A stretch of DNA of 59,227 nt, the filler included. It is 6 parts of 6 records of this genome, joined end to end, with 100 filler letters (N's around TTAATTAATTAA, not from the genome) between each part and the next. Parts side by side here need not be neighbours in the genome. Positions count along the whole stretch, not along the records: positions 43,142 to 59,227 come from SRR31156797_3440; 5 more parts are not named here. One strand, 5' to 3'. The notes beneath the pieces were generated by a model, which worked only from the letters and a program-made list of their open reading frames with translations, searched no databases and was not told the origin of the DNA. The position numbers were made by a program, and so were the translations under genes. Shown one piece after another: positions 43,142 through 59,227 of the stretch. The first letter of the stretch is position 1. Each line of letters starts with the position of its first letter.

Positions 43142-43176
43142 GGGATATCCTGATCAGGATATCCCCCCTTTTTTTT
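43142..43176. terminator. Palindromic terminator hairpin
   Basis: GGGATATCCTGATCAGGATATCCC perfect 24-bp palindrome followed by CCC and a T-run. Confidence 0.7.
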
Positions 43177-43200
43177 ACGCCTAAAAGCATTCACCAAATC

Positions 43201-44181
43201 TCATATTTCCTTCAGAAGTTCCGAAATCTTCTCCACTTCCAAAAACCATGGATTTGTATCAGAACCATATGCAAAATTTTCGGGAACCTGTTTGCCGCCA
43301 CAGCCACCGTAGCGGTTTTCACACCCTTCAAAAGCTGGATTAATTACATAGTACTCTGAAAATTCATAACTGTTGCGGGCTTCATCTTCCGGGATCATCA
43401 ATTCATGAAGCTTTTCTCCCGGCCTGATCCCCACAATATCTATTTCGCATTTTGGACAGATTGCTTTGGCTAAATCAATTATGCGAGTACTGGGAATTTT
43501 GGGAATAAAAATCTCCCCGCCGTGCATATCAGCTAAACGATCCAGAACAAAACGCACTCCCTGCTCAAGAGTAATCCAGAAACGGGTCATTCGCTCATCC
43601 GTAACAGGGAGTCTGCCCGTTGATTTTAATTTCCTGAACAGCGGTACAACGCTTCCTCTACTGCCCAGTACGTTCCCATAACGAACCACCGAAAATATAG
43701 TTTCTTCTTCCGGAGCATAAGAATTGGCGGCAACAAAAAGTTTGTCTGAACAAAGTTTGGTTGCCCCATAAAGATTAAGCGGGTTCACAGCCTTATCCGT
43801 AGACAGGGCAATAACCTTATCAACTTTCATATCGATACAGGCATCAATAAGATTCGAAGCACCATTAATATTGGTTTTAATCGCTTCAATGGGATTAAAC
43901 TCCGCAGCCGGAACCTGCTTGATTGCTGCGGCATGAAATACAATATCCACTCCGTTCAATGCCCGATACAACCGTTTCTTATCCCGGACATCACCCAGAA
44001 AAAAACGCATCCTATCGACCAGCGGTTCAAAATCTTCGGCCATCTTGCGTTGTTTCCGCTCATCCCGGCTGAAAACAACCACCGTGCCTGCTTCGTATTC
44101 ACGCAACAAAACTTCAGCACATTTTCTGCCGAATGTCCCAGTACCACCGGTAATCAGAATCCGCTTGCCTTTCAAACTCAT
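43201..44181 (-). CDS. pseB: UDP-N-acetylglucosamine 4,6-dehydratase (inverting)
   Basis: TGGTGTFG, HAAAIKQVP, LSTDKA, YGATK, RYGNVLGSRGSV, GIRPGEKLHE. Confidence 0.92.
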   Translation of the reverse strand: MSLKGKRILITGGTGTFGRKCAEVLLREYEAGTVVVFSRDERKQRKMAEDFEPLVDRMRFFLGDVRDKKRLYRALNGVDIVFHAAAIKQVPAAEFNPIEAIKTNINGASNLIDACIDMKVDKVIALSTDKAVNPLNLYGATKLCSDKLFVAANSYAPEEETIFSVVRYGNVLGSRGSVVPLFRKLKSTGRLPVTDERMTRFWITLEQGVRFVLDRLADMHGGEIFIPKIPSTRIIDLAKAICPKCEIDIVGIRPGEKLHELMIPEDEARNSYEFSEYYVINPAFEGCENRYGGCGGKQVPENFAYGSDTNPWFLEVEKISELLKEI

Positions 44182-45323
44182 TTACCACCCCTGAGTCGCG
44201 CCAAACAGGTTTTCACCCCGTCAATTACCCGTTGTTGGTCTTCTGCTGACAGCCCCGGAAAAATAGGCAGAGAAATAATTTCATTTGCAGCCTGTTCAGC
44301 AACAGGACACATCCCTTCCGAAGTCCCCAGTTCACGCCTGTATAGACTCATGAGATGCACTGGCAAATAATGGACATTCACCATAATTGCACTGGAACGC
44401 ATTGAATAAAAAAGTTCATCTCGCAATGATTCATCCACCCGGACAACATAAAGGTGGTTAGCATGGTCTTTACTCCGATTCAAAGGGGTAACACCAGAAA
44501 AATCACTGAAGGCCTCATCGTAAGTCCGGGCTATCCTTTCACGAGCCTCCAAAAAGAAATCAAGTTTTTGCAGCTGGCTGCAACCTAGAGCGCAGTGGAT
44601 GTCACTCAAGCGATAATTGCTGCCCAACTCTTCAATATCATAGCGGTAAGAATGCCTGTCTTCTCGTTCTTTGAAATCAGTAGTAATTCCGTGATTGCGG
44701 AAAGAGGATGCCTTTGCTGCGATCTCTGCATCATCAGTAACCAGCATGCCGCCCTCCCCGGTGGTAATATGTTTTACCGGGTGAAAACTATAGATCGCGA
44801 TATCGGCCAGTTGAGCCGGAGTAAATCCGTTATGTTCACAACCAAGACCATGGCAGCAGTCGGAGAGCAAAAACAGCCTATTTTGCTCAGCAATGGAACG
44901 CAAAGCAGAATAATCACAAGGCTGACCAGCATAGTCAACCGCAAAGATAGCTTTTGTTGCCGGAGAAATATGGGCTTCTACAGATAGTGGATCAATTAAC
45001 AACGAGTCAGGAAGAACATCGGCAAAAACAGGCTTGGCACCGCAAGCCAGAACACAGTTGGCTGTTGCAGCAAAAGTAAGGGGGGTAGTGATGACTTCAT
45101 CTCCCGGGCCCAACTGTAGGGCAGCAACCGCGCCGAGAAGCGCTGCGCTACCACTACTGAAAGACACCCCGCATCTTCCCCGGACCCTACGCGCAACTCT
45201 TCTTTCAAACTCAGCCACCATAGGCCCGGTAGTGAGCCACCCCGATTCCAGACAATCAGCTACCGCCTGTATATCATCTTTATCGAGAAACTGTCGCCCA
45301 TAAGGAATTGTCTTCTCAGCCAT
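44178..45323 (-). CDS. pseC: DegT/DnrJ-family sugar aminotransferase (PseC-like)
   Basis: IPYGRQ, WLTTGP, SFHPVKHITTGEGG (PLP Lys), NYRLSDI, VHYLPVH. Confidence 0.85.
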   Translation of the reverse strand: MAEKTIPYGRQFLDKDDIQAVADCLESGWLTTGPMVAEFERRVARRVRGRCGVSFSSGSAALLGAVAALQLGPGDEVITTPLTFAATANCVLACGAKPVFADVLPDSLLIDPLSVEAHISPATKAIFAVDYAGQPCDYSALRSIAEQNRLFLLSDCCHGLGCEHNGFTPAQLADIAIYSFHPVKHITTGEGGMLVTDDAEIAAKASSFRNHGITTDFKEREDRHSYRYDIEELGSNYRLSDIHCALGCSQLQKLDFFLEARERIARTYDEAFSDFSGVTPLNRSKDHANHLYVVRVDESLRDELFYSMRSSAIMVNVHYLPVHLMSLYRRELGTSEGMCPVAEQAANEIISLPIFPGLSAEDQQRVIDGVKTCLARLRGGK

Positions 45324-45347
45324 CAAGCTATCTCCAACACCATGTCT

Positions 45348-46340
45348 CTAATTCCTCTTGTCGGTAACACCCGCGAGGGCACGCAACTCATCTTTTGACA
45401 TCCATGAATCATTTTTATTTGAAACATATTCAAAATCAGGAGCAACTTTTTCGCCACAGCATTGTATTTCCCCACGTTCAAAAAAACGGTACGTCGGCTG
45501 AATCAGATAGTGGTCATCATATTCATAAGTATTGGCAGCCTCATTACCGGGGATCATCACACAATGTTTATTTTCACCAAGAGCCGGACCTTCTGCCACA
45601 ACAGTAGATTCCGGGCAAAGAGCTTCGAGCATATCTTCCATCTTCATACTTGGACTCTTAGGAATAAATATTTCTCCTCCCTGCATGGCTCCAAGGCTAT
45701 TCAAAGTAAAATCAACCGCTTGTTGCAGAGAAATCCAAAAACGCGTTATTTCAGGATCATCTATGGAGACTATTCCTTTCTGCGCTGCTTTCAATAATCT
45801 GCTGACCATATCCCCCTGATAGCCAAGCACATTACCAAAACGGGCAACTGAAAAACGCGTGCTTCGGCTTCCAGCATAACTATTACCACTGATAAACAAG
45901 CGCTCTGAACATAATTTGGTAGCCCCAAACAAATTCACTGGATTAGCAGCCTCTTCCGTGGAAACTGCAATCACTCTGGAAACCCCCCTATCGATAGCAG
46001 CTTCTACAATATTTTGTGAACCAAGGATATTGGTCTTCACGGCTTCATAGGGGTTATATTCGCAGGCAGGTACATCACGCAAAGTAGCGGTGTGGATAAC
46101 TACATCAATTTTTGCAAATGCCCGATGCAAACGATCGGTATCGCGGACATCCCCGATAAAATATCGCAAGCAGGGGTGCTCAAAAGGAGAAAATTTGCGC
46201 TGCATTTCATACTGCTTATACTCGTCTCTGCTGAATATTATCAGCCGCTCCGGCCGATATCTTTTTAAGAGTGTTTCCACAATTTTATGCCCGAACGATC
46301 CGGTCCCACCGGTTATCAGTATGGATTTGCCGTTAATCAT
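45348..46340 (-). CDS. PseB paralogue with substituted catalytic residues
   Basis: Full-length, TGGTGSFG intact, but STEEA and FGATK replace STDKA and YGATK; AAGGAG RBS before ATG 46340. Confidence 0.85.
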   Translation of the reverse strand: MINGKSILITGGTGSFGHKIVETLLKRYRPERLIIFSRDEYKQYEMQRKFSPFEHPCLRYFIGDVRDTDRLHRAFAKIDVVIHTATLRDVPACEYNPYEAVKTNILGSQNIVEAAIDRGVSRVIAVSTEEAANPVNLFGATKLCSERLFISGNSYAGSRSTRFSVARFGNVLGYQGDMVSRLLKAAQKGIVSIDDPEITRFWISLQQAVDFTLNSLGAMQGGEIFIPKSPSMKMEDMLEALCPESTVVAEGPALGENKHCVMIPGNEAANTYEYDDHYLIQPTYRFFERGEIQCCGEKVAPDFEYVSNKNDSWMSKDELRALAGVTDKRN

Positions 46341-46393
46341 GCACAATCTCCTTAAAGAAGCTGTTCTTTTCTAGCTTTTTCAGGTGGAACAAT

Positions 46394-46425
46394 AAAAAAA
46401 TCCTCACCTGAAGGCGAGGACTTTT
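46394..46425 (-). terminator. Rho-independent terminator after the methyltransferase gene
   Basis: Minus strand TCCTCGCC-TTCA-GGTGAGGA-TTTTTTT. Confidence 0.75.
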
Positions 46426-46476
46426 AACTTATTATGAAAAAAGAGGCCGTGCAGACACACCCCAAATGGGAATCCC

Positions 46477-47049
46477 TTAAAGTTTCGCCACAAATAACAT
46501 TCGAATAGGATACCCGGGCTTGTTGACCATCTCACTCTGGATAACCCGGTAAACGTGATAGTCGAGTCCAGTGCAGTATTCACGCACAGCGATATCTTCC
46601 TCGTCTCCGCCGGGATGCCCGGCATAAATAGCAATGCAGAGCATGCCGCCCTTGGCGAGAATTTCAAGGGAGGCCTTAATTGCGGCGAGAGTGGTCTCGG
46701 ATTTGGTTATGACGGTCTTGTCACTTCCGGGCAGGAAGCCGAGATTAAACATAACGGCGTTGACCCGTCCGTGAAATTCAGCCGGAATGAGCTCGAGCAT
46801 ATTTTCGTGCCCGGAATGAAAAAGAGTCCAGTTTTCGGGAAGACACTCCTCGTTCAGTCGCTGTTCGGTTTGCTTGACTGCATCTTCCTGAATATCGAAT
46901 CCAAAGATATGACCGTCTATTCCTGCTTTTTTAGATAAAAACACGGTATCGTAGCCATTACCCACAGTGGCATCGACTCCAATACACCCCGGCTCCAGAA
47001 CTTCACACAGTACTGATTTTGCGAAAGAAAGAATATTGTTGGAAATCAT
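46477..47049 (-). CDS. Class I SAM-dependent methyltransferase, YtqB/MnmM-like (probable tRNA modification)
   Basis: DATVGNGYDT, FGFDIQ, HENM, MFNLGFLPGSDK, YAGHPGG..E. Confidence 0.8.
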   Translation of the reverse strand: MISNNILSFAKSVLCEVLEPGCIGVDATVGNGYDTVFLSKKAGIDGHIFGFDIQEDAVKQTEQRLNEECLPENWTLFHSGHENMLELIPAEFHGRVNAVMFNLGFLPGSDKTVITKSETTLAAIKASLEILAKGGMLCIAIYAGHPGGDEEDIAVREYCTGLDYHVYRVIQSEMVNKPGYPIRMLFVAKL

Positions 47050-47130
47050 CTGTTTTCACCCGCACAAAAGGATTACGGTTTATTCATCATCGAGAATAAC
47101 CGAACACATGCTTAAAGGCACGCAGTAAAA

Positions 47131-47877
47131 CTAGAACTTAAGATACTTGTTGAGCTTACCGGACTTAGAAAACTGGCGTTCAGTGGACCCGAAAGTCGTG
47201 GTTCCGCTGATCGTGTAAGAGGAATTTGGAAGTCTCTTCCAATCCAGAGTAGCACTGCCCTTTGCAGTAACCGGGATAGGTTGGCCGCAACTGAAAGAGT
47301 TGAGCTGGAGTTGCTTGCCGGCCAGCACTGCGTTCACGTTAACGTCCTCGGCAATAAGTCCGCCAGGAATCTCGACCGCTTTTGAACGCACTACAAGGCT
47401 GCCTGTTCGCGGTGGAGCACCCCACTCGGTAAAACCCACATCAGAAGTGATACGTACCTTACCGCCTAACCCGTCCATCTGGACGAGCTTAGCAAGATCA
47501 ACACCGCCGCCAAGGGTCAAGGACTTGGTCTGGAACAATTTTGCGGTCAAAGTCGGCCCGGTCTTAACCCGCACTTCAAGAAGCGGAGAAAATCCGAGAG
47601 ACACGCCAAGCTGGGGCACGGTTACGGTCAATCCTTTTTGGGTCGTCACGTAAACGTTGGTCACTTCAAATGAAAATGGTCCGGCACTAACAAAGTCGCC
47701 CCACTGAATTGTGGCCTTGGAAATTTTGGAATCTGCCAGTTTGAAAGCCTGTGACCAGGCAACTTCCCAAGGCATAAACAGGAATGCGCCAAGGATCAGT
47801 CCGGCCAGAAAAAGGAAAAAATTCCTGAAGGCTTTTTTGAAAGAAAACTTAAAAGAAATATTAGGAATGAATTTCAT
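47131..47877 (-). CDS. gspN: Type II secretion protein N-like
   Basis: N-terminal TM ending FMPW, beta-rich remainder; last gene after gspM. Confidence 0.55.
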   Translation of the reverse strand: MKFIPNISFKFSFKKAFRNFFLFLAGLILGAFLFMPWEVAWSQAFKLADSKISKATIQWGDFVSAGPFSFEVTNVYVTTQKGLTVTVPQLGVSLGFSPLLEVRVKTGPTLTAKLFQTKSLTLGGGVDLAKLVQMDGLGGKVRITSDVGFTEWGAPPRTGSLVVRSKAVEIPGGLIAEDVNVNAVLAGKQLQLNSFSCGQPIPVTAKGSATLDWKRLPNSSYTISGTTTFGSTERQFSKSGKLNKYLKF

Positions 47878-47886
47878 CCGGCCGCC

Positions 47887-48384
47887 CTACCTGACAAGAA
47901 TGATCTGCACATCAGCCAACTCAGGGGAGTCCAGCCTGTGGTTGATATTGAAATTTGTAACCTTCAAGGCTCCCCGCACATTGAAATCGCGCAGCAGAGC
48001 GACCAGTTCCGGCAGATTCAAGGACTCAAGCAAAACCTGCACGCCCTGACCGGAATTAGCTCCCCCCTGCAACGGCCTTAGAGAAGTCAACCTGCTGTCC
48101 AACCCAAGGTCACGAATAACCTGTTGGGCAGCAGTCATGGGTTCACGGTCCACCAATGCACCACGCGAAGACTCTCCGGCCTTAAGCTGTTCAACCAATG
48201 GAACCACTTTGGCAAACTTTTGTTTGCTGGAAAGGGTCATCCGCTCAGCCTTGGACTGAGAGTCATCAAGTCCGGACCAGACCATAAAAAGGATCAACGC
48301 CCAGCCCGCAACAAGCGCAGTAAAGAAAAGCTTCTGTTTTTCAGCAGGCCAATCCTGCCAGATGTAAAATCTTTCCAGATCCAT
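47887..48384 (-). CDS. gspM: Type II secretion protein M
   Basis: WQDWPAEKQ then TM, coiled coil, VQVLLESLNLPELVALL ferredoxin-like domain. Confidence 0.75.
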   Translation of the reverse strand: MDLERFYIWQDWPAEKQKLFFTALVAGWALILFMVWSGLDDSQSKAERMTLSSKQKFAKVVPLVEQLKAGESSRGALVDREPMTAAQQVIRDLGLDSRLTSLRPLQGGANSGQGVQVLLESLNLPELVALLRDFNVRGALKVTNFNINHRLDSPELADVQIILVR

Positions 48385-48398
48385 TACACTACCTGAGA

Positions 48399-49511
48399 TT
48401 AGCGGTTATATTCAGCACGCAAGCTGATACTGATGCCGCCTTCAATATTGGTGGCCTGTTCAAGAACAAAATTAAACTGGCTGTTAGCGGCCAGTTTTTC
48501 CATCATGGCATCAAGCTCTTCATAGCTGCTGACCTTACCCCGGATGTTACCGGAATCAGCACCAAGTGAAAAACCTTCAATTTCAATGCCCACGGGGGCA
48601 CTGTCACTAAGCACGGCAAGCAGGCCAAGCACATCAACCCCGCCGCCATCGCCGCCGCTTTTAAGCTGATCAAGCTTGTAAAGAATCTTGCCGTAGGGAT
48701 CAGAGCCCGGATTTGGACCAAGGGCACTGACATAAACTTCCTTGAGCTTAGTGCGCCACTCCTTAGCCTTTACCTGACTCTGCTGCCAGCGATGATACTG
48801 CCCTGAAATAAAGAGTAATCCGATTAAAGAGACCAGAACAGCGGCAACAGCAAAAGGCTTGTAGTCGATGGTCACAGATTTGTCAGATCCGGAACGCATA
48901 CCATTCACAAGATTCAGCCTTGCCCAGCGGACTTTCTTTCTGGAAAAAATTTCGCAGGCTTTATCCAAATCCATGAGCTCGGGTTCGCCATCCAATCCCA
49001 AACGTTCAAATCTGCTTTTGAACTCCTCGTCACTACCACGAAAATAGGTCAATTCCTCTACACAGGCGAGAATACGCATGCCCTGCCCCTTCCAACTCCA
49101 GACAGACAAACCTTCAGCAACCGCAGCCCTCCAGCAAACGGCAAAGGTTGTAGTCAGAACAGTGGCTTTGGCAAGAACTTCACGATGCCGTTCCAAAAAA
49201 CGGTCAAGAAGATCATGCCCGGTATAACCGAGCACAGCTTCTCCGGACGGACGCAGAACTTTGAATTCTCCTTCCTGCACTGGAAAGGAATAATTCATCT
49301 GCATCATCGTCGCAGATTTGGCATGACGGGACTTTATAGCCCCACGGGGCTTGAAAAAAAAGAAAAGAGGGTCAGGCAAAAGGGCAACCACCGGATGTCT
49401 GTTCTTTTCAGCAGGGCCTTCCGATTCGGTAAGGTTCTTGCCGTCAAACATCATCCACTTATGCTCATTTCCCTTGAATGAAAGAATATATACTATTTTT
49501 TTAAAGGCCAT
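48399..49511 (-). CDS. gspL: Type II secretion protein L
   Basis: Cytoplasmic domain, LNL motif, single TM, PilN-like periplasmic domain; lies between gspK and gspM. Confidence 0.7.
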   Translation of the reverse strand: MAFKKIVYILSFKGNEHKWMMFDGKNLTESEGPAEKNRHPVVALLPDPLFFFFKPRGAIKSRHAKSATMMQMNYSFPVQEGEFKVLRPSGEAVLGYTGHDLLDRFLERHREVLAKATVLTTTFAVCWRAAVAEGLSVWSWKGQGMRILACVEELTYFRGSDEEFKSRFERLGLDGEPELMDLDKACEIFSRKKVRWARLNLVNGMRSGSDKSVTIDYKPFAVAAVLVSLIGLLFISGQYHRWQQSQVKAKEWRTKLKEVYVSALGPNPGSDPYGKILYKLDQLKSGGDGGGVDVLGLLAVLSDSAPVGIEIEGFSLGADSGNIRGKVSSYEELDAMMEKLAANSQFNFVLEQATNIEGGISISLRAEYNR

Positions 49512-49553
49512 CTATGGCTTTGTCCTATACCTGTTAGCAGTGTGTTTGTCCAT

Positions 49554-50501
49554 TTACTGATCTTGCGCAAAGGTTACGGAAATATCATTCTGATAGACAA
49601 GTTTCGGTTCTCCGATCTCAAGAGAACTTTCCCTACGAATGATATATCTTTTTACCACCGTACACCCGCCCACAGATGCACTAACCCGAGCTTCGAAAAA
49701 GCCCGATTTTACGTCCAATTCATTGGTCATATTTTTATACAAGCTGGAATCCGACTCTAACCCGGTAACTGAAAGAACCTGACTGATATCGGTAAAACCT
49801 CTGGTTCGCCGCCAATGCATTATCCTGTCAACCCCTTTGCTCAATTCCGGAAAATAGGCCAACAGCACTTCGCGAGATGCAAAATTTATATTGATTTTAC
49901 CTGTGCCCCAAATAGTAAATGTATCATCTATCCACTCCCGGTCAATCTCATCCCAACCACGAACAAGAAGCAACTCTTCAGGAGTTTTCAGTCTACTCCC
50001 GCGTGGAGAATATGAGGGGAATTGCGAGGCATAGAAAAAATTATCCATTTTCTCCAGCTTCGAATTGACGTTCTTACCTGTCCATATTGCAAGGCTTCCG
50101 GCCATATTTTTCACGTCATAGCCTGCACCAAGAATATTGTTTAAAATTTGCAGTGAGGCTTCCCTATCATCAAAGCTGATCAACTCATTAACATTTATCT
50201 TACTATTACAAGGCTTTATCTCAATAGATAACCCATCATCCTCCCACTCTCCGGCCCACTTTTCATCCGGGGTATCGGAAAAGAGAGTTTTGTCATCTTT
50301 AAGCAAATCATAGATCATATATAAAGCTTCTTCAGCCTTGAATCCAGCCTCATACTCACTGCGGACACGGCTAGCTTCAACCGCCCCACGGGAACTGACT
50401 TCAATGGTCATCAGGGTCAGTCCGGACAAAGCCATAAACAAGACCAGAACAATGACCAGAACCACCCCTCGCGAGTTACTATAGTCATTACTCCGTAACA
50501 T
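49554..50501 (-). CDS. gspK: Type II secretion minor pseudopilin K
   Basis: RGVVLVIVL prepilin-like start, KINVN, EELLLVRG, KININFA. Confidence 0.85.
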   Translation of the reverse strand: MLRSNDYSNSRGVVLVIVLVLFMALSGLTLMTIEVSSRGAVEASRVRSEYEAGFKAEEALYMIYDLLKDDKTLFSDTPDEKWAGEWEDDGLSIEIKPCNSKINVNELISFDDREASLQILNNILGAGYDVKNMAGSLAIWTGKNVNSKLEKMDNFFYASQFPSYSPRGSRLKTPEELLLVRGWDEIDREWIDDTFTIWGTGKININFASREVLLAYFPELSKGVDRIMHWRRTRGFTDISQVLSVTGLESDSSLYKNMTNELDVKSGFFEARVSASVGGCTVVKRYIIRRESSLEIGEPKLVYQNDISVTFAQDQ

Positions 50502-51069
50502 ATGGAACCCTCTCCAGAAGCAAAACCTCTTGGCCGTCTTCAAATCTCAACCTGAGCCGAAAAGCCTTTAAGGTCTGTTCATTGCTTATGCCCTTGCTTC
50601 TTTGCTGAGAAAGTGAAATCCAAATATTTTTTTTAATATCAAGAACTTCCAGAGTCCATGACCTGAGTCCACGCATCAAAAGCTGTGAATACTCAAACTC
50701 AAGATCAGAAGATTTTTCAGACCTGCGGACCATGGAAGAAGAAAAATCCCACGATACAATTACCGGTCCGGCATTCTCAACCATAATGGAATTACTTGAC
50801 TCAAAAGCTATTCCGGTTTCACTGACACCAACCATTTTACCAGGCACGACATTCTGCAAATCCCGATGCAGAATACGGCGCAGGGTGAACATACGTGAGG
50901 AAAGGCCAGCACTAGAACGAACGACTTCGTTATTGGTGACCGACTGTCCGAGCACCATGGCAACCATACTCATCAGCAGCCCGGACAGCACCAATCCGAT
51001 AAGCACCTCGATGAGAGAAAAGCCCCCCTGAGATTCAGGAAAGGGATGGCTGCGTCGAAAAATTTCCAT
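50488..51069 (-). CDS. gspJ: Type II secretion minor pseudopilin J
   Basis: GFSLIEVLIGL N-methylation motif; RRILHRDL; gene order. Confidence 0.75.
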   Translation of the reverse strand: MEIFRRSHPFPESQGGFSLIEVLIGLVLSGLLMSMVAMVLGQSVTNNEVVRSSAGLSSRMFTLRRILHRDLQNVVPGKMVGVSETGIAFESSNSIMVENAGPVIVSWDFSSSMVRRSEKSSDLEFEYSQLLMRGLRSWTLEVLDIKKNIWISLSQQRSKGISNEQTLKAFRLRLRFEDGQEVLLLERVPYVTE

Positions 51070-51431
51070 TAAAACTGCTTCTTTTTATGTGATACCCGGT
51101 AGACTCTCCACTCAAGGGTGTAATCATCGCTACGGGTTTCTAGTGTATAATACCCCTTGCCGGCAGAAGAGATTGTCTCCAACCCCACCCTGAAGCTGCC
51201 TTCAGGAGGTCCGGGCCACGAAATCCAACCAGAAGAGACAATCTTCAACCTGTCTGGATATTTATGAGCCAAAATATCCTGCGACAAATTCAAAACATTC
51301 CATGAATCCTTTGAAGACTGGGCCATAAGGGCGCTCTGCCTCTGCACTCCCAAAAAACTTATCGATAGCGTTGCGGCGATGGTCAAAGCCACAATGATCT
51401 CTATCAGGGAAAATCCGTTCTTAAGAGCCAC
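51069..51431 (-). CDS. gspI: Type II secretion minor pseudopilin I
   Basis: GFSLIEIIVALTI; 120 aa; gene order. Confidence 0.75.
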   Translation of the reverse strand: MALKNGFSLIEIIVALTIAATLSISFLGVQRQSALMAQSSKDSWNVLNLSQDILAHKYPDRLKIVSSGWISWPGPPEGSFRVGLETISSAGKGYYTLETRSDDYTLEWRVYRVSHKKKQF

Positions 51432-51433
51432 AA

Positions 51434-51862
51434 CTAAATCTCCACAAAACGGACCGCAAGCGGGTCCAAAATAACGGTCAAACCATCCGAAAAAACCAGA
51501 CGCACCTCATCACTGAATCCTTCAGGGTAAATGGTAAACTCAACCCCGCTGTCATCAATTGGATACTCATTAAAATGTCCGCTGGAAACTTCTGAAGGGA
51601 GAGAAACCTCCTCTCCGTTCCATTTGAGCAGCCCGTTATCAAAATCAATAAACACATGCTGCCGGGAATCTGTTTCCACTGCTTCCGTCCTTGCCTCATA
51701 AATTAGAGCATTGACCAGATTCAAACTGTCATCACCCCGATCACCGGCAAGATCAAGATTGGGCATGAGCGTAAACCAGCCCATGCCCACAATAAACAGA
51801 ACAATTAAAAGCTCTATAAAGGTCAGTCCGCCTGAAAAACGGCGGGCAGCATGCATATTCAT
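51434..51862 (-). CDS. gspH: Type II secretion minor pseudopilin H
   Basis: GLTFIELLIVL; AR.EAV; F…P.G; follows gspG. Confidence 0.75.
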   Translation of the reverse strand: MNMHAARRFSGGLTFIELLIVLFIVGMGWFTLMPNLDLAGDRGDDSLNLVNALIYEARTEAVETDSRQHVFIDFDNGLLKWNGEEVSLPSEVSSGHFNEYPIDDSGVEFTIYPEGFSDEVRLVFSDGLTVILDPLAVRFVEI

Positions 51863-51881
51863 AAGATTTTATAAAACCAGC

Positions 51882-52343
51882 TTATTCCCAACTTTTGATA
51901 TCGGCGTCATAATCCTCACCGCCTTCCATGCCGTCAGCACCGAGAGAAATAAGCTCATACGGACGCCCTTCCTCGCCGGGACTTCTGTAGATGTAATCGT
52001 AACCCCAAGGATCAACAGGTGCAGCGGCGGAATCAAGGTAGCCGCCCTTACGGTAGTTACGGGGAACAGGACGGCTTTCCGGTTTGGTAATCAAAGCCTG
52101 AAGCCCCTGTTCGGTTGTGGGGTAGCGTCCGGTATCCAATTTGTACAATTTCAAAGCCGAATCAAGGGCTTTCATGTCCATCTTTGCCTTTGTCACTCTT
52201 GCTTCGTTAGGACGGTCCATGATTTTGGGAACCAGCATTGAAGCCAAAAGGCCGAGGATAACAATTACAATCATCAACTCGATAAGACTAAAACCACGCT
52301 GACCTTTTTTAAGGTCTGCAATACAAATTCTTTTTTTCTGCAT
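51882..52343 (-). CDS. gspG: Type II secretion major pseudopilin G
   Basis: [46 protein letters not shown]. Confidence 0.95.
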
Positions 52344-52377
52344 AATGTCCTCTACTTATTATTACCCTTTCCTAAGG

Positions 52378-53742
52378 TTAATCCCTGATATCAATGCGCT
52401 TGTTTTCCAGCGGCTCCCACTCAACGGGACTCCCAGCAGCGATTCCCTCGCGACGGGGCAACATCCCCCGGGACTTGAAATAATCATCCGGACGGACAAC
52501 TTTTTCCCACCAAAGGTAATACCCTTTACTTGGTATATACCTGCAATACAACCTCTGAAATTCACGCTGGGCAATGGGCACTGCAAGGTTAAAGTCCCTG
52601 CCACGCTCGGAAAAGCTGTAACCGCGTTCTATCTTTACTGTCTTCCAGTCGGCAAAATCATACTCACCCTTAAGGAGGCGACCATCCAGAGAGGAATAAT
52701 ACCTGACAATCCCGTCAACATCCCTGACACGATAAACTTTACCCGACGGGGAGCGATCAACTGAGAAAGAGACCGGCCTGAATTGGATTTTTTTAGAAAA
52801 CTGCTTACGCGGCGACCGGTAAAACAAAACCCCGTTTTTAAGAAAAAAACCATCTTCCTGCTCAAAAAAAGGAGACTTCACTCTATTACTAACATCCCAC
52901 TGAAATCGCTGTCCTTTCTCAGTAACAACATTAAGATGGGGGCCATAGGCTTTAACTGACTTGAAAGGACCGCCCTTAATCTTCTGATCAAAAATACGAG
53001 TTAGTTTAAGCGGACTCCACATAACCATTTTCCCGGTGGTATCCACACCCATGAGGATTCCTTCCTCATTGGAGAAAGTCAAAGAAAGCGGTTGGTAAGA
53101 GAAACGGTCAATCTTATGGAGTTTCCCGGCAGCAGGGCCAACCCAAAGCCTGCGGGCCTCATCCACCAAAGCAAGCCAACTACCTCTCGGCGAAAGGGCG
53201 AACATGTCCACAGTACTATTCACATCATGAACGCGCACCCGTGCACATTCCTTGACACTAAATACCTCAACACTCTTGTTCTTGCCGGATGTGACAGCCA
53301 GATAAGGGGACTCCGGAAACCATGACACAGAATTGACTGGCTCTGAAACAGCCTGAACAGCACCACATCCCTGACCGCCATACATGCGCACCACGCCATT
53401 TTTGAACCCTGCAGCAAGAACATTCCCATCCTGCACAAAGGTTTTAACATCCTCAGCCAGATTTACGATCTCGTTGCTCTTGCTGAGTTGCACAATATAA
53501 TTTCCGGACATACCTTCCGGAGGACGGTTGTAAATGCTGTCCAATGAGGAATACTGCTGAGAAGCTGAATACTCCACAAAACCGGCAAGGCTGAGCGGTG
53601 CCTTTCCAACAAGTTTGGAGACATCAAGGCTGTCATCAGTAACAAGAGTGGGCTCATCAGTTACAGGAGAAGGCTGCTTGGCACAGCCTGAAACAAAAAC
53701 AACAAAGAATGTCAGAGCTAGAATGATTGACTTTTTATTCAT
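52378..53742 (-). CDS. WD40/beta-propeller lipoprotein
   Basis: Likely start ATG 53742 (AAGGA RBS), lipobox VSGC, WD-like repeats (VNSVSWFPESPYLA, FALSPRGSWLA, LTFSNEE). Confidence 0.75.
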   Translation of the reverse strand: MNKKSIILALTFFVVFVSGCAKQPSPVTDEPTLVTDDSLDVSKLVGKAPLSLAGFVEYSASQQYSSLDSIYNRPPEGMSGNYIVQLSKSNEIVNLAEDVKTFVQDGNVLAAGFKNGVVRMYGGQGCGAVQAVSEPVNSVSWFPESPYLAVTSGKNKSVEVFSVKECARVRVHDVNSTVDMFALSPRGSWLALVDEARRLWVGPAAGKLHKIDRFSYQPLSLTFSNEEGILMGVDTTGKMVMWSPLKLTRIFDQKIKGGPFKSVKAYGPHLNVVTEKGQRFQWDVSNRVKSPFFEQEDGFFLKNGVLFYRSPRKQFSKKIQFRPVSFSVDRSPSGKVYRVRDVDGIVRYYSSLDGRLLKGEYDFADWKTVKIERGYSFSERGRDFNLAVPIAQREFQRLYCRYIPSKGYYLWWEKVVRPDDYFKSRGMLPRREGIAAGSPVEWEPLENKRIDIRD

Positions 53743-53940
53743 AATTCCTTCATTTTCAGGATGAAGATTTGATAGAACCTTAAAACAGTGCTGCAGGCAA
53801 TGCAATCGCACTTTTCAACAGGTTGTGTTAAAGCAGAGCGTGTAAAAGTCAAGCACAGCCTGAAAACTATCCTTGCCCATACCTCGGTATTACGGCACAA
53901 GAAGCGACAGCATATCCCCACTTCTACGGCAAAAAAACAA

Positions 53941-55197
53941 ATGAAAAAGACATATAAAAAGATAATAGACTACCTGTCTGGATATACTGGACGTGAAGGC
54001 AAAAACAACTTGAAAAACACAAGCTGGCGGTTACCTGTACTGGCGAGCTTTTATGTGCTGGCCTATGTAATATTCGACCTCATGGCCGACAGTATTTCCC
54101 GCCATTATATTTTCTGTATTTTTCTGGTAGTATCCAGCCTTTATTTTTCATGGCGCCTTGGCGGTCGGGAAACCATGACCTATGTTGGTTTTTTCAATAT
54201 CTTCTTTGCCTTCATATTTTCCCGTCTTCTGTATATGACCGGCAACTTTTCTTCCAAGCTCTTCCTAAGCCGCTCGTTCATGACCCTCTATGTAGTGGCA
54301 ATCATTTTTATGTTCATCATGACCAAGCGCAAATCACCAGCGGACCGGGAAAAAGTAGACCGGGAAAAGTCTATCCGCGATGAACGCCAGAGACGCAGAC
54401 AACTAGAACTCATGGTCGCCACGGAAAAACTTACCGACGACATGATCACTCAGGCAAATATGGTTAAAGATGAACTTATGGTACTCCAGAATTCATGGAA
54501 GTCTCAAATTCATACCATTGTCAACGACCTGCCAAAGGTCAAAGAAAGGGAACTATACAACCAGATAGTAACCCCTTTTGAAGAAAGCATCATTGAACAC
54601 CTACGCGATCTTGAAAAGAGACTTTCCTTCAAACCGCAGTTGATAGGCCTTGACGAACTGGCGACAAACCTTACTGATAGGCTTGAAAATGACCAAAAAC
54701 ATTCCCGAACACGGCTGGACCTGCAGTTTGATTTTGAAAAATGGATGAGTAGGGAAGAAGAAATCCTTGTGGACCGTCACAAAACATGGGAAATTCTGAT
54801 CAACCTGATCAGAAACAGTCAGACAGCCATGGAACTCAGGCAGATAGAACTGCTCCGCCAAGGCAGCGAAGAATTCAAGACTTTTAAACCCCGGTTATCC
54901 ATCATCGCCGATGTGCAGAACAACTACGCCCGCGTACGAGTCGCTGACACAGGCGGCGGCGTTTCCGATGACAGTTTGCAGGACCTTTTCAAAAGAGCCG
55001 TGCCTTCTGCCAAACGTAAAGGCAAAGCCATGGGACAAGGTACTGTCTTTGTGAAATTTTTCGGAGACAATATGGGCTTTGACATATCAGCAAAAAACAC
55101 AGAAACTTTAGGCTCCAAGGGCCTTGAAGTTACCATACTCATTCCTCTTGGGACCTTCGGTCCCGCAGGGGCTATTCCAGCAGCAGGAGATAAATAA
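53941..55197 (+). CDS. Atypical membrane sensor histidine kinase
   Basis: About four TM segments, coiled coil, divergent H-box QIHTIVNDL, N-box LINLIRNS, DTGGG, G2-like GQG. Start is uncertain. Confidence 0.75.
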   Translation: MKKTYKKIIDYLSGYTGREGKNNLKNTSWRLPVLASFYVLAYVIFDLMADSISRHYIFCIFLVVSSLYFSWRLGGRETMTYVGFFNIFFAFIFSRLLYMTGNFSSKLFLSRSFMTLYVVAIIFMFIMTKRKSPADREKVDREKSIRDERQRRRQLELMVATEKLTDDMITQANMVKDELMVLQNSWKSQIHTIVNDLPKVKERELYNQIVTPFEESIIEHLRDLEKRLSFKPQLIGLDELATNLTDRLENDQKHSRTRLDLQFDFEKWMSREEEILVDRHKTWEILINLIRNSQTAMELRQIELLRQGSEEFKTFKPRLSIIADVQNNYARVRVADTGGGVSDDSLQDLFKRAVPSAKRKGKAMGQGTVFVKFFGDNMGFDISAKNTETLGSKGLEVTILIPLGTFGPAGAIPAAGDK

Positions 55198-56108
55198 TGA
55201 CCCCGGAACAGGATCCGTATTTTTTTGTTTTGGCAGACGATGATCCGCGTTTGCACGAATACACTGTTTCAATCCTCCGCAATGCGGGAATTCTCGAGAA
55301 ACACGAATCTTTTTATGATCCGGTCTCCTTTTTGGCCTTTTTAAAAGAATCCGAAGAAGAGCCGGATGTAATCCTGCTTGATGTTCATTTTGAAGGTTCC
55401 GGACTCAGTGGAGTTGATATCCTCCCTTACATCCGCGAGGAATATCCGTACATCCCGGTCATCCTTTTAACTGGAATGGACGCCGAAGCCACAGACGAAG
55501 CCCAGTCCGACGTCTTCACTTACTTTATCCCCAAACCGGTGACCGAAGACCACTTGCTGCGCATGCTTCATTTTTACCTCGGTAAAAGTAAAAAAACAGC
55601 AGAACAGGTCAATACCCTCATGGCGGAAATGGAAGAAGTCAAAGGGTACCACCAGTTGTTGGAAGAAGAAGTGGAACAGCTTCAGGACGAGCAACGCCGC
55701 CTTGAAGAACAGAGTAAAACAGAGAAGACAACCGGATCCGGTAAAGGATTTGAAAAAGTAACTGAAATTCTTGAATCCCTGCTTACCAAAAGTGAAGCAA
55801 TGCCCAGCTTCATTGCCGACCTTGAAAAAGTATACTCCACCCAGTTCAAGCTGTTCAAAAAGGTAATCGAAACCCTAATCCGCTTTGATGTACAGGATGC
55901 CGGAACACCGGGCATGAACATCCATAAAGTAAAAGGGACCCAGAATGTTTTCAGCGCCCGACTGTCCAGAAAAGTAAGGCTCTTTTATTACAGCTCCGCT
56001 AAGACCGTAAGAAAAAGGCTTTTAAGACTAGACATTTACCACGACACCAAGGGTATGGACAAGTGGATTAAAAACAACTACCATTCTTACGCTGAAATAG
56101 AGGAATAG
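55197..56108 (+). CDS. Response regulator: receiver, coiled coil and C-terminal RelE/YafQ-like domain
   Basis: ADDD, LLDVH, LLTG, KP receiver motifs; C-terminal IHKVKG…FSARLSRKVRLFY…LLRLDIYHD. Confidence 0.8.
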   Translation: MTPEQDPYFFVLADDDPRLHEYTVSILRNAGILEKHESFYDPVSFLAFLKESEEEPDVILLDVHFEGSGLSGVDILPYIREEYPYIPVILLTGMDAEATDEAQSDVFTYFIPKPVTEDHLLRMLHFYLGKSKKTAEQVNTLMAEMEEVKGYHQLLEEEVEQLQDEQRRLEEQSKTEKTTGSGKGFEKVTEILESLLTKSEAMPSFIADLEKVYSTQFKLFKKVIETLIRFDVQDAGTPGMNIHKVKGTQNVFSARLSRKVRLFYYSSAKTVRKRLLRLDIYHDTKGMDKWIKNNYHSYAEIEE

Positions 56109-56171
56109 TAATTTTAAATTTTCTCGGCACTGTACACCGTGTCTGGAAAACTTTTTAGGATATATTTTTAT

Positions 56172-56948
56172 ATGGAGCTGAAAGCCACCAAATTTCCGGC
56201 ATGGCTGTGGCCGCTCGCTTTCGGGCTGGCTACGGCTTATCTTGTGTCGTCCTTTGTCCCGTTGCCTAAACCCACTGCCCCTATTCTCGGGCAATCCTTT
56301 TCCTCAGACGCAACCAGCAAAATGGAAAAAGATTCCAAGCTAATTCTAGAAAAAAATGTTCTTGGGCTAGATAACCCGGCGGAAATCCAGAAAAAAACTA
56401 AAGTAACCCCTTCGACTTGGATGCTGGTCGGCATCCTTACCGGGGAGACTGACATGGCTGTTTTCAGAATAAAAAATGAAACTGTCATCCTACGCGAAGG
56501 TGAAGAATACGAAGGTTGGACTCTTGCTGAAATCAAACCTCAATACGTCATCTGGAAATATGGACGCGAGCAGAAGAAAGTAGCCATGTGGGATCAGGTT
56601 CAGAGCCTGAGACTCGTACGCGGCAAAACCAACAAGATTACTGTCAACAAAGCTGAAGCCAAAGAAATCCTTGATGACCCCAATGCGTTCCTCAAGCAGG
56701 CCCTGTTTAAACCATACAGCAAGGGCGGTAAGACTCAAGGTTTCAGGGTAACCAACATCAGGACCAACTCCCTGCTCAAGAAACTCGGCCTTGAAAACGG
56801 CGATGTGCTCAAACGCATTAACGGCGAAATGATCACCGGACCGACCAAACTGCTACAGGTATATGGTTCTCTTGGCGGAGCTTCCGCCATTGCCATCGAT
56901 GTTGAACGCAAAGGGCAAATGCTCTCCCTGATAGTTGAGCTTAAGTAG
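56172..56948 (+). CDS. gspC: Type II secretion protein C with PDZ domain
   Basis: TM segment, HR domain (LVGIL…EGEEYEGWTL), PDZ (GFRVTNI…LGLENGDVLKRING…VERKG). Confidence 0.85.
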   Translation: MELKATKFPAWLWPLAFGLATAYLVSSFVPLPKPTAPILGQSFSSDATSKMEKDSKLILEKNVLGLDNPAEIQKKTKVTPSTWMLVGILTGETDMAVFRIKNETVILREGEEYEGWTLAEIKPQYVIWKYGREQKKVAMWDQVQSLRLVRGKTNKITVNKAEAKEILDDPNAFLKQALFKPYSKGGKTQGFRVTNIRTNSLLKKLGLENGDVLKRINGEMITGPTKLLQVYGSLGGASAIAIDVERKGQMLSLIVELK

Positions 56949-56957
56949 GAATCAGAA

Positions 56958-58169
56958 ATGCCCACCTATCAATATCGCGCGGTCACCAAGGAAGGTAAAA
57001 AGAAAAAAGGGTTTGTTGAAGCCTCGTCCCAGTCCAAAGCCTTTGCCACTTTGCAGAGCAAAGGACTCATGCCCCTGCGCCTTGAGCAGGTCAAATCAGG
57101 ACAAAAAGAAAAAAGTTCCACCAAGTCTCTGACCTCTTCCATGTCTATGAGCGGAAAGATCAGGCTGGGCGAATCTTTCTACTATCTTGGCATTCTGCTT
57201 CAAAGCGGTACCGCGTTGGCCCAGTCACTGGACATGATGGCCCGCATGAGCGGAGGTAAAGCCAGCCATACCTGGATGGAAATACGCGATGCAGTCCAAT
57301 CCGGTGAAAGCTTCTCATCCTGCCTCGGCAAGTATCCAAAAATTTTCCCGCAGGTTTACGTGGGCATGGTTCAGGTTGCTGAATCAGTAGGTAAACTCGG
57401 CGATGTACTTGAGAACATCGCCAAGTACGAAGAAGAACGCGCCGAAGTAAGCGGGCGACTCATGACCGCCATGGTCTATCCGGTGGTTATTCTGATGATC
57501 GGTATGGGTGCGGTTTATTTTCTGCTTTCTGAAGTTCTGCCCAAAATCACCGGAATATTCAAAGCCGCTAAAGGCGAGCTGCCTACCTCCACCAAAATAG
57601 TTGTAGCACTGGGCAACACTCTTGAAAGTCTCGGCCCCATGGCCCTGCTCATTCCTTTATGTGTAATTTTCGCTTTTATCAGTGCTTATAAATCCGTGCC
57701 CAAATTCCGGGAAAAGATCGACGGGTTGCTCTGGAAAATGCCGTTGGTCCAAAAATCAACTCTGGCTCGCTTTTCGGGCATTCTCGGTTTCCAGATCGAT
57801 GCCGGGATCCCCCTTGTGCAAGGAATGGAAAGCTCAGCCAATGCTGTTAATTCAACATTTTTCAAAAAGAAAATGGCCGAAGCACGTGAAGAAGTTGCCA
57901 CAGGGCGATCTTTAAGTGCAGTACTGGCTGAACAAAAGATTTATCCTGACATCTACATTCTGACCCTTACAGCCGGACAAAAATCCGGTGAACTGGGCAA
58001 ATTTCTACAACGCATGGGCACCATATTCGAAAGAGATGTGGACAACTTCATGAAACGTGTGGTCGCATTGGCTGAACCGATGCTGCTGCTTTTCATCGGC
58101 ATGCTTATCGCATTTATTGTTGTCGCCATCATGGGCCCGATATTCGACCTCACCTCGCTCGTAAAATAG
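56958..58169 (+). CDS. gspF: Type II secretion inner-membrane platform protein F
   Basis: MPTYQYRA…G.VEA.S; ESVGKL; AMVYP; GIPL; SGEL; AEP…P. Confidence 0.92.
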   Translation: MPTYQYRAVTKEGKKKKGFVEASSQSKAFATLQSKGLMPLRLEQVKSGQKEKSSTKSLTSSMSMSGKIRLGESFYYLGILLQSGTALAQSLDMMARMSGGKASHTWMEIRDAVQSGESFSSCLGKYPKIFPQVYVGMVQVAESVGKLGDVLENIAKYEEERAEVSGRLMTAMVYPVVILMIGMGAVYFLLSEVLPKITGIFKAAKGELPTSTKIVVALGNTLESLGPMALLIPLCVIFAFISAYKSVPKFREKIDGLLWKMPLVQKSTLARFSGILGFQIDAGIPLVQGMESSANAVNSTFFKKKMAEAREEVATGRSLSAVLAEQKIYPDIYILTLTAGQKSGELGKFLQRMGTIFERDVDNFMKRVVALAEPMLLLFIGMLIAFIVVAIMGPIFDLTSLVK

Positions 58170-58176
58170 GTAACAA

Positions 58177-59175
58177 ATGACCGATAAACAACTTTCCGAC
58201 TTCATAAAACGGGGCAAGGAAGTTCTTCAAATTGAAGAAAATGGACTTGCCTCCATCCGTGACTCTCTTGATCTCAACTTTGCCAAAGCAGTGGAAATGC
58301 TGGCCGGATGCAAAGGTCGCGTAATAATCACCGGACTGGGTAAATCCGGGCTGGTAGGCCGTAAAATTGCTGCCACCATGTCTTCCACCGGAACACCGTC
58401 TTTTTTCCTGCATCCAGTTGAAGGAGCGCACGGAGACCTTGGCATGGTCCGGGCTGAAGATGTGGTCATCTCCATCTCCAACAGCGGTGAAACTGATGAA
58501 CTCAACGCACTGCTCCCGGCTATCCGCTCCTTTGGCACCAAGATAATTTCCATCACCTCGGAAATTGAATCCACTATGGGCAAACTTTCAGACATTGTAG
58601 TCAGAACCAAGGTTCCCTGTGAAGCCTGCTCCCACGGATTAGCGCCCACGTCATCCACCACCGCAGCCCTTGCCATGGGTGATGCACTGGCAGTCTGCCT
58701 CATGGACCACAAGGCTTTTGACAGTCAGGATTTCAAAAAATTTCATCCCGGTGGATCGCTGGGCCGCAGGCTGACCCTGTGCATCAGCGAACTTATGCAC
58801 ACGGACAACATTCCATCTGCCCCGCTGGATGCCACACTTTCCGAAGCACTCGGCGTGCTCGACAAAGGCGGACTAGGTCTCGTAGCTTTGACCACAGGCC
58901 AAAAGCTCTCAGGCGTAATCACCGACGGCGATGTGCGCCGATTGGTCTGTTCCGGCAGCTTTGACGACAAAATTCCCGCCCGTGAGGTCATGATCGAAAA
59001 TCCCCTGCGCATCACCCCGGACATGTCCGCAGCACAGGCCCTCGACATCATGGAGTCCAAAGAGATCACCGTACTGCCCGTAGTAAACGAAGAGGGCAGA
59101 CTGACAGGCATGATTCATCTGCATGATCTCTTAGGCAAGGGTAGATTGAAGTTCGCAGATAACGTGCGCAACTAA
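58177..59175 (+). CDS. kdsD: Arabinose-5-phosphate isomerase (KpsF/GutQ; SIS + CBS)
   Basis: GLGKSGLVGRKIAAT…STGTP, HGDLG, SNSGET, APTSST, HPGGSLG; CBS pair. Confidence 0.92.
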   Translation: MTDKQLSDFIKRGKEVLQIEENGLASIRDSLDLNFAKAVEMLAGCKGRVIITGLGKSGLVGRKIAATMSSTGTPSFFLHPVEGAHGDLGMVRAEDVVISISNSGETDELNALLPAIRSFGTKIISITSEIESTMGKLSDIVVRTKVPCEACSHGLAPTSSTTAALAMGDALAVCLMDHKAFDSQDFKKFHPGGSLGRRLTLCISELMHTDNIPSAPLDATLSEALGVLDKGGLGLVALTTGQKLSGVITDGDVRRLVCSGSFDDKIPAREVMIENPLRITPDMSAAQALDIMESKEITVLPVVNEEGRLTGMIHLHDLLGKGRLKFADNVRN

Positions 59176-59227
59176 CAGATTTTAAATTAAATCGGCAAAG
59201 CCCTAATAAAAGTTTTTGGGATTCTTA

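Follow-up and report, generated by a model that had tools for sequence, protein, structure and literature searches.

What does a two-component response regulator do when its receiver is followed by a domain that resembles a toxin instead of one that binds DNA? The question is raised by a pair of genes, one for a membrane histidine kinase and one for the regulator behind it, in a DNA window of 59,227 nt from a sulfate-reducing marine bacterium. The window consists of six record parts joined end to end with 100 N's between them; the pair lies in the part at positions 43,142–59,227, which comes from SRR31156797_3440, and parts that adjoin in the window need not be neighbours in the genome. A sequence-only reading of this DNA had proposed that the 303-residue regulator carries an intact receiver, an acidic coiled coil and, from about position 55800, an output that looks like an mRNA interferase of the RelE/YafQ family. 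In our analysis, modelling gives the C-terminal domain the fold of the RelE/ParE toxin superfamily, and this is our firmest result. The more specific proposal, that the protein is a phosphorylation-gated, antitoxin-free RelE-type ribonuclease, is in our judgement evenly balanced between right and wrong.

The fold assignment comes from predicted structures. A full-length AlphaFold2 model built from an alignment of 114 sequences (predicted local distance difference test score, pLDDT, 84.6; predicted template modelling score, pTM, 0.50) has well-modelled domains whose mutual arrangement is not well modelled, and shows the receiver at residues 8–125, a helix at 117–176, a low-confidence break at 176–179, a second helix at 181–195 and a compact fold at 199–298. 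Since the full-length model matched only receiver domains in Foldseek (NtrX, PorX and CheY-like), the C-terminal domain was modelled separately, using residues 181–303 aligned with their counterparts at 36 genome loci. The resulting model was of higher confidence (pLDDT 90.0, pTM 0.85), and in a Foldseek search of the PDB it gave eight matches at E ≤ 1e-3, the best at E 3.6e-4, with template modelling scores (normalized to the target) of 0.49–0.76 for stand-alone toxins. The rows listed all belong to the RelE superfamily and include YoeB of Staphylococcus aureus and Escherichia coli, HP0894/HP0892, archaeal and bacterial RelE, YafQ, HigB, ParE and Cami1, the highest identities (23–25%) being to the YafQ-like toxins of Helicobacter pylori.

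VIA-align, a second aligner independent of Foldseek, was run against 48,161 chains and gave the same answer. Ranks 1–24 are all members of the RelE/ParE superfamily, at Z 5.8–9.8 with 66–101 residues aligned over model residues 16–106 approximately or more; examples are HigB (6af3, Z 9.8), YafQ (4q2u, 9.5), RelE (3bpq, 9.1), YoeB (2a6q, 8.8) and Cami1 (8phb, 7.8). Below rank 24, Txp40 alone reached Z 5.5 and all other chains scored less than 5. Two aligners thus place the region of residues 200–303, approximately, in the RelE/ParE fold and not among helix-turn-helix domains, and the predicted boundary agrees with the one first proposed, with strand beta-1 at residues 199–201 and F205 at base 55809. 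Outside the receiver, this domain is the best-conserved part of the protein.

Conservation and alignment together point to a candidate active site. In the family alignment of 114 homologues (35–96% identity), five residues of the C-terminal domain are invariant (D208, H243, R261, H282 and W290) and a further set is at least 90% conserved (L209, D231, P238, G239, K244, V251, R255, K259, R277, D279 and D283), R255 being kept in 108 of the 114. According to a passage in PMC3814384, E46 is the general base and H83 the general acid of YoeB, R59 and R65 stabilize the transition state, and H50 has been proposed as the base in YafQ. A weak hhalign alignment to 18 YoeB sequences keeps step with the fold between strands 1 and 3. 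In it D208 is matched to D12, R255 to R59 and R261 to R65, and H243, with a single-residue gap intervening, is offset from E46 by two positions; the global version leaves H282 one position from H83. The VIA-align alignments are near-gapless, with YafQ residues 4–92 on model residues 17–106 (87 aligned) and YoeB residues 1–84 on model residues 17–102 (83 aligned). Their offset puts H243 at YafQ H50 and YoeB E46, and H282 no more than one residue from YoeB H83 and from YafQ H87, a residue named in the title of PDB entry 4mmg. These correspondences are suggestive of H243, R261 and H282, together with R255, sitting at the catalytic positions of YoeB/YafQ-type RNases to within 0–2 residues.

The distribution of charge along the protein is also uneven. 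The RelE-like domain carries a net charge of +11 and has an isoelectric point of 10.1 (family median 9.5), whereas the receiver carries −17 and the linker (residues 128–180) −5, with a family median of −4 for the latter. Classical toxin–antitoxin pairs consist of a basic toxin and an acidic neutralizer, and the charges of domain, receiver and linker reproduce this pattern within one chain. No antitoxin gene stands beside the regulator, as had been noted at the outset: open reading frames (ORFs) of at least 50 residues across the gene are out-of-frame or antisense shadows only, and there is no room for such a gene because only 30 bp separate the regulator from gspC and the kinase gene overlaps its start.

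On the signalling side, Pfam Response_reg (PF00072) matches residues 11–124 at E 3.3e-13 and is the sole real domain match in the protein, the other matches at E ≤ 1 being coiled-coil noise over residues 115–240 approximately. In the family alignment D15, D62 and K113 are invariant, and 90% or more of the sequences keep D14 and T92, which bears out the intact receiver. The acidic linker, likewise confirmed, is modelled as a single helix and is likely to be a dimerizing coiled coil. Between it and the RelE core lies a short amphipathic helix, alpha-0, which falls outside the part aligned with toxins (the VIA-align alignments mostly start at model residues 14–19). Its hydrophobic positions F185, I191 and L196 are kept in 91, 98 and 92 of the 114 homologues, respectively, and it may be an in-cis masking element.

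The TAA stop codon of the kinase gene and the ATG of the regulator gene share bases as TAATG, the two genes overlapping at 55197, in agreement with the translational coupling read from the sequence. The only Pfam domain matched in the kinase is HATPase_c (residues 284–403, E 8.4e-7), and its dimerization and histidine phosphotransfer (DHp) region is divergent, since no HisKA match was obtained. Among 28 aligned homologues, H191 (bases 54511–54513) is invariant within a short conserved motif, and so are N288 and N292 of the N-box and D336, G340, G365 and G367 of the G-boxes; a KFF motif is also present. The N-terminal stretch of about 130 residues is hydrophobic and poorly conserved (hydropathy windows at about 31–52 and 106–128), and no Pfam domain was found in the N-terminal 280 residues. 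Judged by its motifs the kinase looks active, and it may represent an undescribed DHp and sensor type.

In the mechanism that we propose, the pair would form a two-gene signalling module in which the membrane histidine kinase controls a regulator with an output of the RelE/YoeB/YafQ-type ribonuclease fold. After autophosphorylation at H191, the kinase would phosphorylate the receiver at D62. The receiver would act through the 60-residue helix, probably a dimeric coiled coil, and so move the basic domain or alter how far it is exposed. At rest this domain would be masked in cis by the acidic receiver and linker and by alpha-0, in place of a separate antitoxin, and the switch would expose it or, alternatively, hide it. 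The exposed domain would bind RNA, most likely ribosomal A-site mRNA as RelE-family toxins do, and for cleavage H243 would serve as general base and H282 as general acid, with R255 and R261 stabilizing the transition state. That the kinase gates a ribosome-dependent, mRNA-cleaving domain through the receiver, which would make the regulator an antitoxin-free, phosphorylation-switched RelE and an undescribed class of output, is put forward tentatively, at somewhat less than an even chance. The sensor kinase may, on this proposal, switch translation directly.

How widely the architecture occurs was examined with a word-indexed homologue search of 5.8 billion cluster representatives, which returned 126 full-length proteins at E ≤ 1e-3. 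The 120 members listed are 277–320 residues long, all with a precomputed receiver, and match at 90–100% query coverage and 37–96% identity. Their labels are Maridesulfovibrio, other Desulfovibrionaceae and Desulfovibrionales, Desulfobacterota/Thermodesulfobacteriota, 'Deltaproteobacteria' and a few Gammaproteobacteria. A single one of the 120 carries 'mRNA-degrading endonuclease RelE' as part of its JGI name, so an annotation pipeline has flagged the likeness once. An exhaustive phmmer search with the last 119 residues against 1.84 billion cluster representatives found seven proteins, five of them with the same receiver fusion, and seven short proteins from a profile search (62–231 residues) all lie on contigs no longer than 3.75 kb, which makes truncated genes probable. 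From these two results it follows that, at the level of sequence, the domain occurs only behind a receiver. Two candidates for a stand-alone form were set aside: P0123 (128 residues) is probably a fragment from the Desulfobacterales subfamily, and the spurious match to P0124, a repeat protein, spans 39 residues. For expression, a sequencing run that contained 5% of the sampled words yielded two short contig pieces at 55743–55830, which were mismatched and had unlike flanks.

Full-length regulators were found at 44 genome loci, and 11 further loci that matched the receiver part alone were set aside. By tblastn, a kinase homologue is present in 42 of the 44; L011 has none, the contig of L034 extends only 296 bp beyond the regulator on the upstream side, and in L012 the kinase lies downstream. 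Of the 37 loci with a called kinase ORF, 36 have the kinase stop between 14 bp inside the regulator match and 318 bp upstream of it. The kinase–regulator pair is the conserved unit, and clustering of neighbours across the 44 loci found no conserved small neighbour or third gene. Genes of the type II secretion system (T2SS) flank the pair in 14 of the 44 (L001–L013 and L042, labelled Maridesulfovibrio, Desulfovibrio, Desulfovibrionaceae, Desulfovibrionales or 'delta proteobacterium'), and in 10 of these, with regulators 85–98% identical (L001–L009, L042), the pair has a fixed place inside T2SS operons. At the other 30 loci no T2SS protein of the window was matched within up to 10 kb on each side. 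The secretion setting described in the sequence-only reading therefore holds at the present locus, and it is lineage-specific, not a general feature of the family.

Different neighbours are seen repeatedly in other lineages. Nine loci of the Desulfobacterales type have, downstream, a gene that encodes an AAA_22 and peptidoglycan-binding protein (a GspA-like ATPase), its product scoring 310 bits against the XrtA/PEP-CTERM-associated ATPase model, for which the cut-off is 324.5; a 217–248-residue protein with weak GspC/GspB matches is encoded downstream in seven. A gene for an STT3/PglB-type oligosaccharyltransferase lies beside or near the regulator in four loci (L011, L012, L013 and L044), and a PEGA-TPR protein neighbours it in four. 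Envelope and secretion functions are thus a loose but repeated theme among the neighbours across lineages. The STT3/PglB loci span different lineages, including a Candidatus Thioglobus (gammaproteobacterial) genome. At the Desulfobacterales-type loci L021, L026, L029, L031–L034, L036, L037 and L040 the pair lies in a conserved block with AMMECR1, 700-residue spermine-synthase-like and radical-SAM genes on its upstream side and the genes for the GspA-like ATPase and the weakly GspB/GspC-like protein on the other.

In terms of copy number, a profile of the domain picked out a single copy per genome in three close genomes, and at the family level the regulator is present in 15 of 201 genomes sampled. 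Canonical ParE_toxin genes occur elsewhere in the closest complete genome (three matches in G001). YafQ_toxin (PF15738) was not found in the three close genomes, in a search whose control was equally blank in E. coli.

Several observations weigh against assigning ribonuclease activity to the domain. The motif pattern that had been called typical of RelE/YafQ/HigB proteins is not statistically detectable: no RelE/ParE family is among the 16 Pfam families listed for the regulator at E ≤ 1, or among the 25 most shared of 99 families when 36 homologues were scanned, and PDB sequence and profile searches gave no RelE-type chain at E ≤ 10. The probability assigned by hhalign is 0.2%, 6% and 2% against single E. 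coli sequences of YoeB, YafQ and RelE, respectively, and 2% against 30 ParE_toxin sequences from genomes of the same phylum, with only the 'DL' motif of beta-1/alpha-1 aligned; the best of the set, against the 18 YoeB sequences, is 12.9% (pairwise E 0.0022, 72 columns). The residue mapping described above derives from this weak alignment and from alignment ranges, not from residue-level superposition, and YoeB E46 and Y84 are not kept as such, being His and Asp here. The fold alone cannot separate RNases from ParE gyrase poisons, which match it too at Z 7.4–8.3 (8c24, 8.3; 6x0a, 7.8; 6xrw, 7.6; 5czf, 7.4). With a full-model pTM of 0.50 the interdomain geometry is poorly defined, and a putative dimer with chains of about 35 kDa each would have to get to its target. 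Finally, the regulator is present as one strongly conserved copy in 25 of 26 Maridesulfovibrio species genomes, a pattern uncommon among toxins and in keeping with a non-lethal regulator.

An NCBIfam scan of the regulator likewise left the C-terminal domain unnamed. A designed helical bundle and Spindlin, the best PDB sequence and profile matches, were rejected as noise, and the ESM Atlas assignment of homologue P0004 to ParE_like and RelE/ParE clusters, at 0.83, is below the trust level of the tool and serves as a lead only. Because the sequence and profile searches gave no significant match to a toxin, the domain is best described, as far as sequence comparison goes, as a new sequence family inside a known fold.

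The absence of a significant sequence link to active toxins also speaks for the strongest alternative, namely that the RelE-fold domain is a non-catalytic module that binds the ribosome, a specific RNA or a protein partner, for example a T2SS or envelope-assembly component, so that phosphorylation would control binding or sequestration with no cutting. The near-core, single-copy distribution in the genus agrees with such a role, as do the fixed position in T2SS operons at 10 loci and the recurrence of GspA-like ATPase, GspB/C-like, STT3/PglB and PEGA-TPR neighbours. However, a binding surface would rarely fix an invariant His/Arg/His set at catalytic-type positions down to 35% identity, and the strongly basic surface, although well suited to RNA binding, suits both readings. 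We regard a non-catalytic role as unlikely, yet as an explanation to be taken seriously.

Abortive infection or another form of defence, suggested as one use of the output in the sequence-only reading, would have the kinase sense phage-induced envelope damage and free the RelE-like domain, whereupon translation would be shut down. The idea draws on the analogy to Cami1, a sensor-gated RelE in CRISPR (clustered regularly interspaced short palindromic repeats) defence, on the membrane-embedded kinase with its 280 N-terminal residues free of Pfam domains, and on the patchy occurrence in 15 of 201 genomes. Against it, PADLOC gave no convincing match for kinase, regulator or domain (the best, at E 0.009 and 0.013, were to unrelated models), and the neighbours are secretion and envelope biogenesis genes, not genes of defence islands. 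Within the genus, moreover, the regulator is near-universal, single-copy, syntenic and strongly constrained, which sets it apart from mobile toxins and from genes of defence. The phyletic pattern and the PADLOC result therefore lower the defence reading, which we now consider quite improbable, and favour a physiological regulator.

Least probable of all, and very much so, is a ParE-type gyrase poison or other non-RNase member of the superfamily, through which the kinase would gate DNA-topology stress and not translation: ParE structures match nearly as well as RNases, the language-model clusters are ParE_like and the ParE-type hhalign alignment shares the 'DL' motif, but H243, R255, R261 and H282 appear to correspond to YoeB/YafQ RNase positions, residues that ParE toxins are not known to have, the best fold-match identities are to the YafQ-like H. 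pylori toxins, and hhalign favours YoeB (12.9%) over ParE_toxin (2%).

Comparison with known systems places the putative phosphorylation-gated ribonuclease between response regulators and toxins. CheB is a methylesterase and ANTAR regulators such as EutV are RNA-binding, and the regulator resembles these and PorX in that a helical linker joins its receiver to an output that, here putatively, is enzymatic or acts on RNA; its receiver and linker match PorX, NtrX and EutV structures, with a weak NCBIfam match to PorX (3.5e-6). Like PorX, the type IX secretion system regulator with an enzymatic output, it accompanies a secretion system. What sets it apart from all three is the RelE/ParE fold of its output, which was met with in none of the response-regulator papers searched. 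With the ribosome-dependent mRNA interferases YoeB, YafQ, RelE and HigB it shares the predicted fold (Z 8.3–9.8) and a basic domain, and its candidate His/Arg/Arg/His set appears to lie at or within 1–2 residues of YoeB E46/R59/R65/H83 and YafQ H50/H87, with His and Asp at the Glu and Tyr positions of YoeB. Type II toxins are stand-alone proteins of 84–95 residues, mobile and multi-copy; the domain studied here differs from them in its lack of significant sequence or profile similarity, in its fusion to a receiver with no antitoxin gene, and in its single-copy, near-core occurrence in the genus.

By analogy, the nearest precedent for gating within a single chain would be Cami1 (PDB 8phb, 8phj), a CARF-RelE protein and type III CRISPR ancillary effector; a passage in PMC11229360 describes it as a dimer that cuts A-site mRNA upon binding of cyclic tetra-adenylate (cA4). 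Both proteins are single chains in which a sensor precedes a RelE-fold domain, and neither has a separate antitoxin; the RelE portion of Cami1 matches our domain model at Z 7.8 over 94 residues. They differ in that the regulator has for its sensor a receiver that would take up phosphoryl groups from a histidine kinase whereas Cami1 has a CARF domain that binds cA4, in the 60-residue helix and extra alpha-0 that join the parts of the regulator, and in context, as no CRISPR genes, of type III or otherwise, were identified among the neighbouring genes scanned; the activity of the regulator is, moreover, a predicted one. Full-text literature searches found no relevant paper on a receiver–RelE fusion. 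The main texts of Makarova et al. 2009 (PMC2701414) and of a 2018 census of archaeal two-component systems (PMC5847659) do not mention one, and the supplements of either might list such rare architectures. The toxin fold and the signalling module of the regulator are each known, whereas their combination and the sequence family are undescribed, although an older census may list the architecture.

The features of the locus are collected below. As first read, gspC and gspF are the next genes on the same strand; the sites listed include no plus-strand terminator-like site at 56108–56139. The gspC-like product matches NCBIfam GspC_delta at 1.3e-35 with 123.6 bits, under the curated cut-off of 150 bits, and TIGR01713 at 2.1e-18, and its Pfam PDZ matches are weak. 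In the divergent operon T2SSK matches weakly, T2SSM at 1.1e-7, GspL at 3.1e-10 and GspN at 0.0034, the last two under their cut-offs. The T2SS cluster of the window (47131–52343 and 56139–58169) contains neither gspD nor gspE. In the closest complete genome (G001, contig C1, about 4.25 Mb) a T2SSE ATPase and a secretin are encoded about 44 kb from the regulator, which accounts for a local cluster without D and E, and a second ATPase–secretin pair is found at another place in that genome.

Between the gspG operon and the kinase gene lies a gene for a protein with weak WD40/beta-propeller matches and no matching NCBIfam family. From an internal Met (residue 24 of the listed ORF) a hydrophobic stretch leads to Gly-Cys, with the look of a lipoprotein signal. 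The protein is kept at the same place in Maridesulfovibrio-type loci (58–87% identity), and its counterparts in L010 and L013 are about 33% identical.

Table. Positions of the regulator and its parts, the kinase and other genes in the window
Feature	Position	Strand	Remarks
Membrane sensor histidine kinase	53941..55197	+	418 residues; start taken at ATG 53941
Response regulator	55197..56108	+	303 residues: receiver, long helix, helix alpha-0, RelE-fold domain
Receiver (REC)	55218..55571	+	Residues 8–125; phospho-acceptor D62 at bases 55380–55382
Single long helix	55545..55724	+	Residues 117–176; runs on from receiver helix alpha-5 (DSSP on the AlphaFold2 model)
Amphipathic helix alpha-0	55737..55781	+	Residues 181–195; precedes the RelE core; helix H2–15 of the domain model, block pLDDT 86–94
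RelE/ParE-superfamily fold domain (predicted)	55785..56090	+	Residues 197–298; beta-alpha-alpha-beta-beta-beta-beta-alpha
Candidate active site	H243 55923–55925; R255 55959–55961; R261 55977–55979; H282 56040–56042	+	Conservation and alignment
gspC-like gene, PDZ-bearing T2SS protein C	56139..56948	+	30 bp 3' of the regulator
gspF, T2SS inner-membrane platform protein	56958..58169	+	Pfam T2SSF 3.3e-48; 9 bp after gspC
Divergent T2SS operon	47131..52343	−	gspG, three pseudopilin genes, gspK-, L-, M- and N-like genes
gspG	51882–52343	−	T2SSG 1.4e-40
Three pseudopilin genes	51434–51862, 51069–51431, 50488–51069	−	N_methyl matches
WD40-like protein	52378–53811	−	About 450 residues
Putative rRNA methylase	46477–47049	−	Abuts the gspN-like gene
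Sugar-nucleotide modification genes	43201–46346	−	
dCache methyl-accepting chemotaxis protein	40729–42735	+	
Tll0287-like/PAS histidine kinase	38044–40479	−	
Sigma-54-dependent response regulator	36638–38035	−	

The regulator family is small and well defined, comprising 126 proteins and 44 species loci, and the outputs known for response regulators are DNA binding, a few enzymes, RNA antitermination and protein binding. If the ribonuclease reading is true, direct signal-controlled mRNA cleavage or translation arrest would join this list, and a RelE-fold domain would have been domesticated as a stable, chromosomal, single-copy regulator that is neutralized in cis. Its release would come about by phosphorylation and not by antitoxin proteolysis, the only comparable case that we found being the cyclic-nucleotide-gated Cami1. 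In Maridesulfovibrio, where the pair lies within the T2SS operons, it is likely to act not as a selfish toxin but as a regulated brake, or as a post-transcriptional control, linked to the condition of the envelope or of the secretion machine. On the ribonuclease reading, that condition would be coupled to translation within seconds and without transcription.

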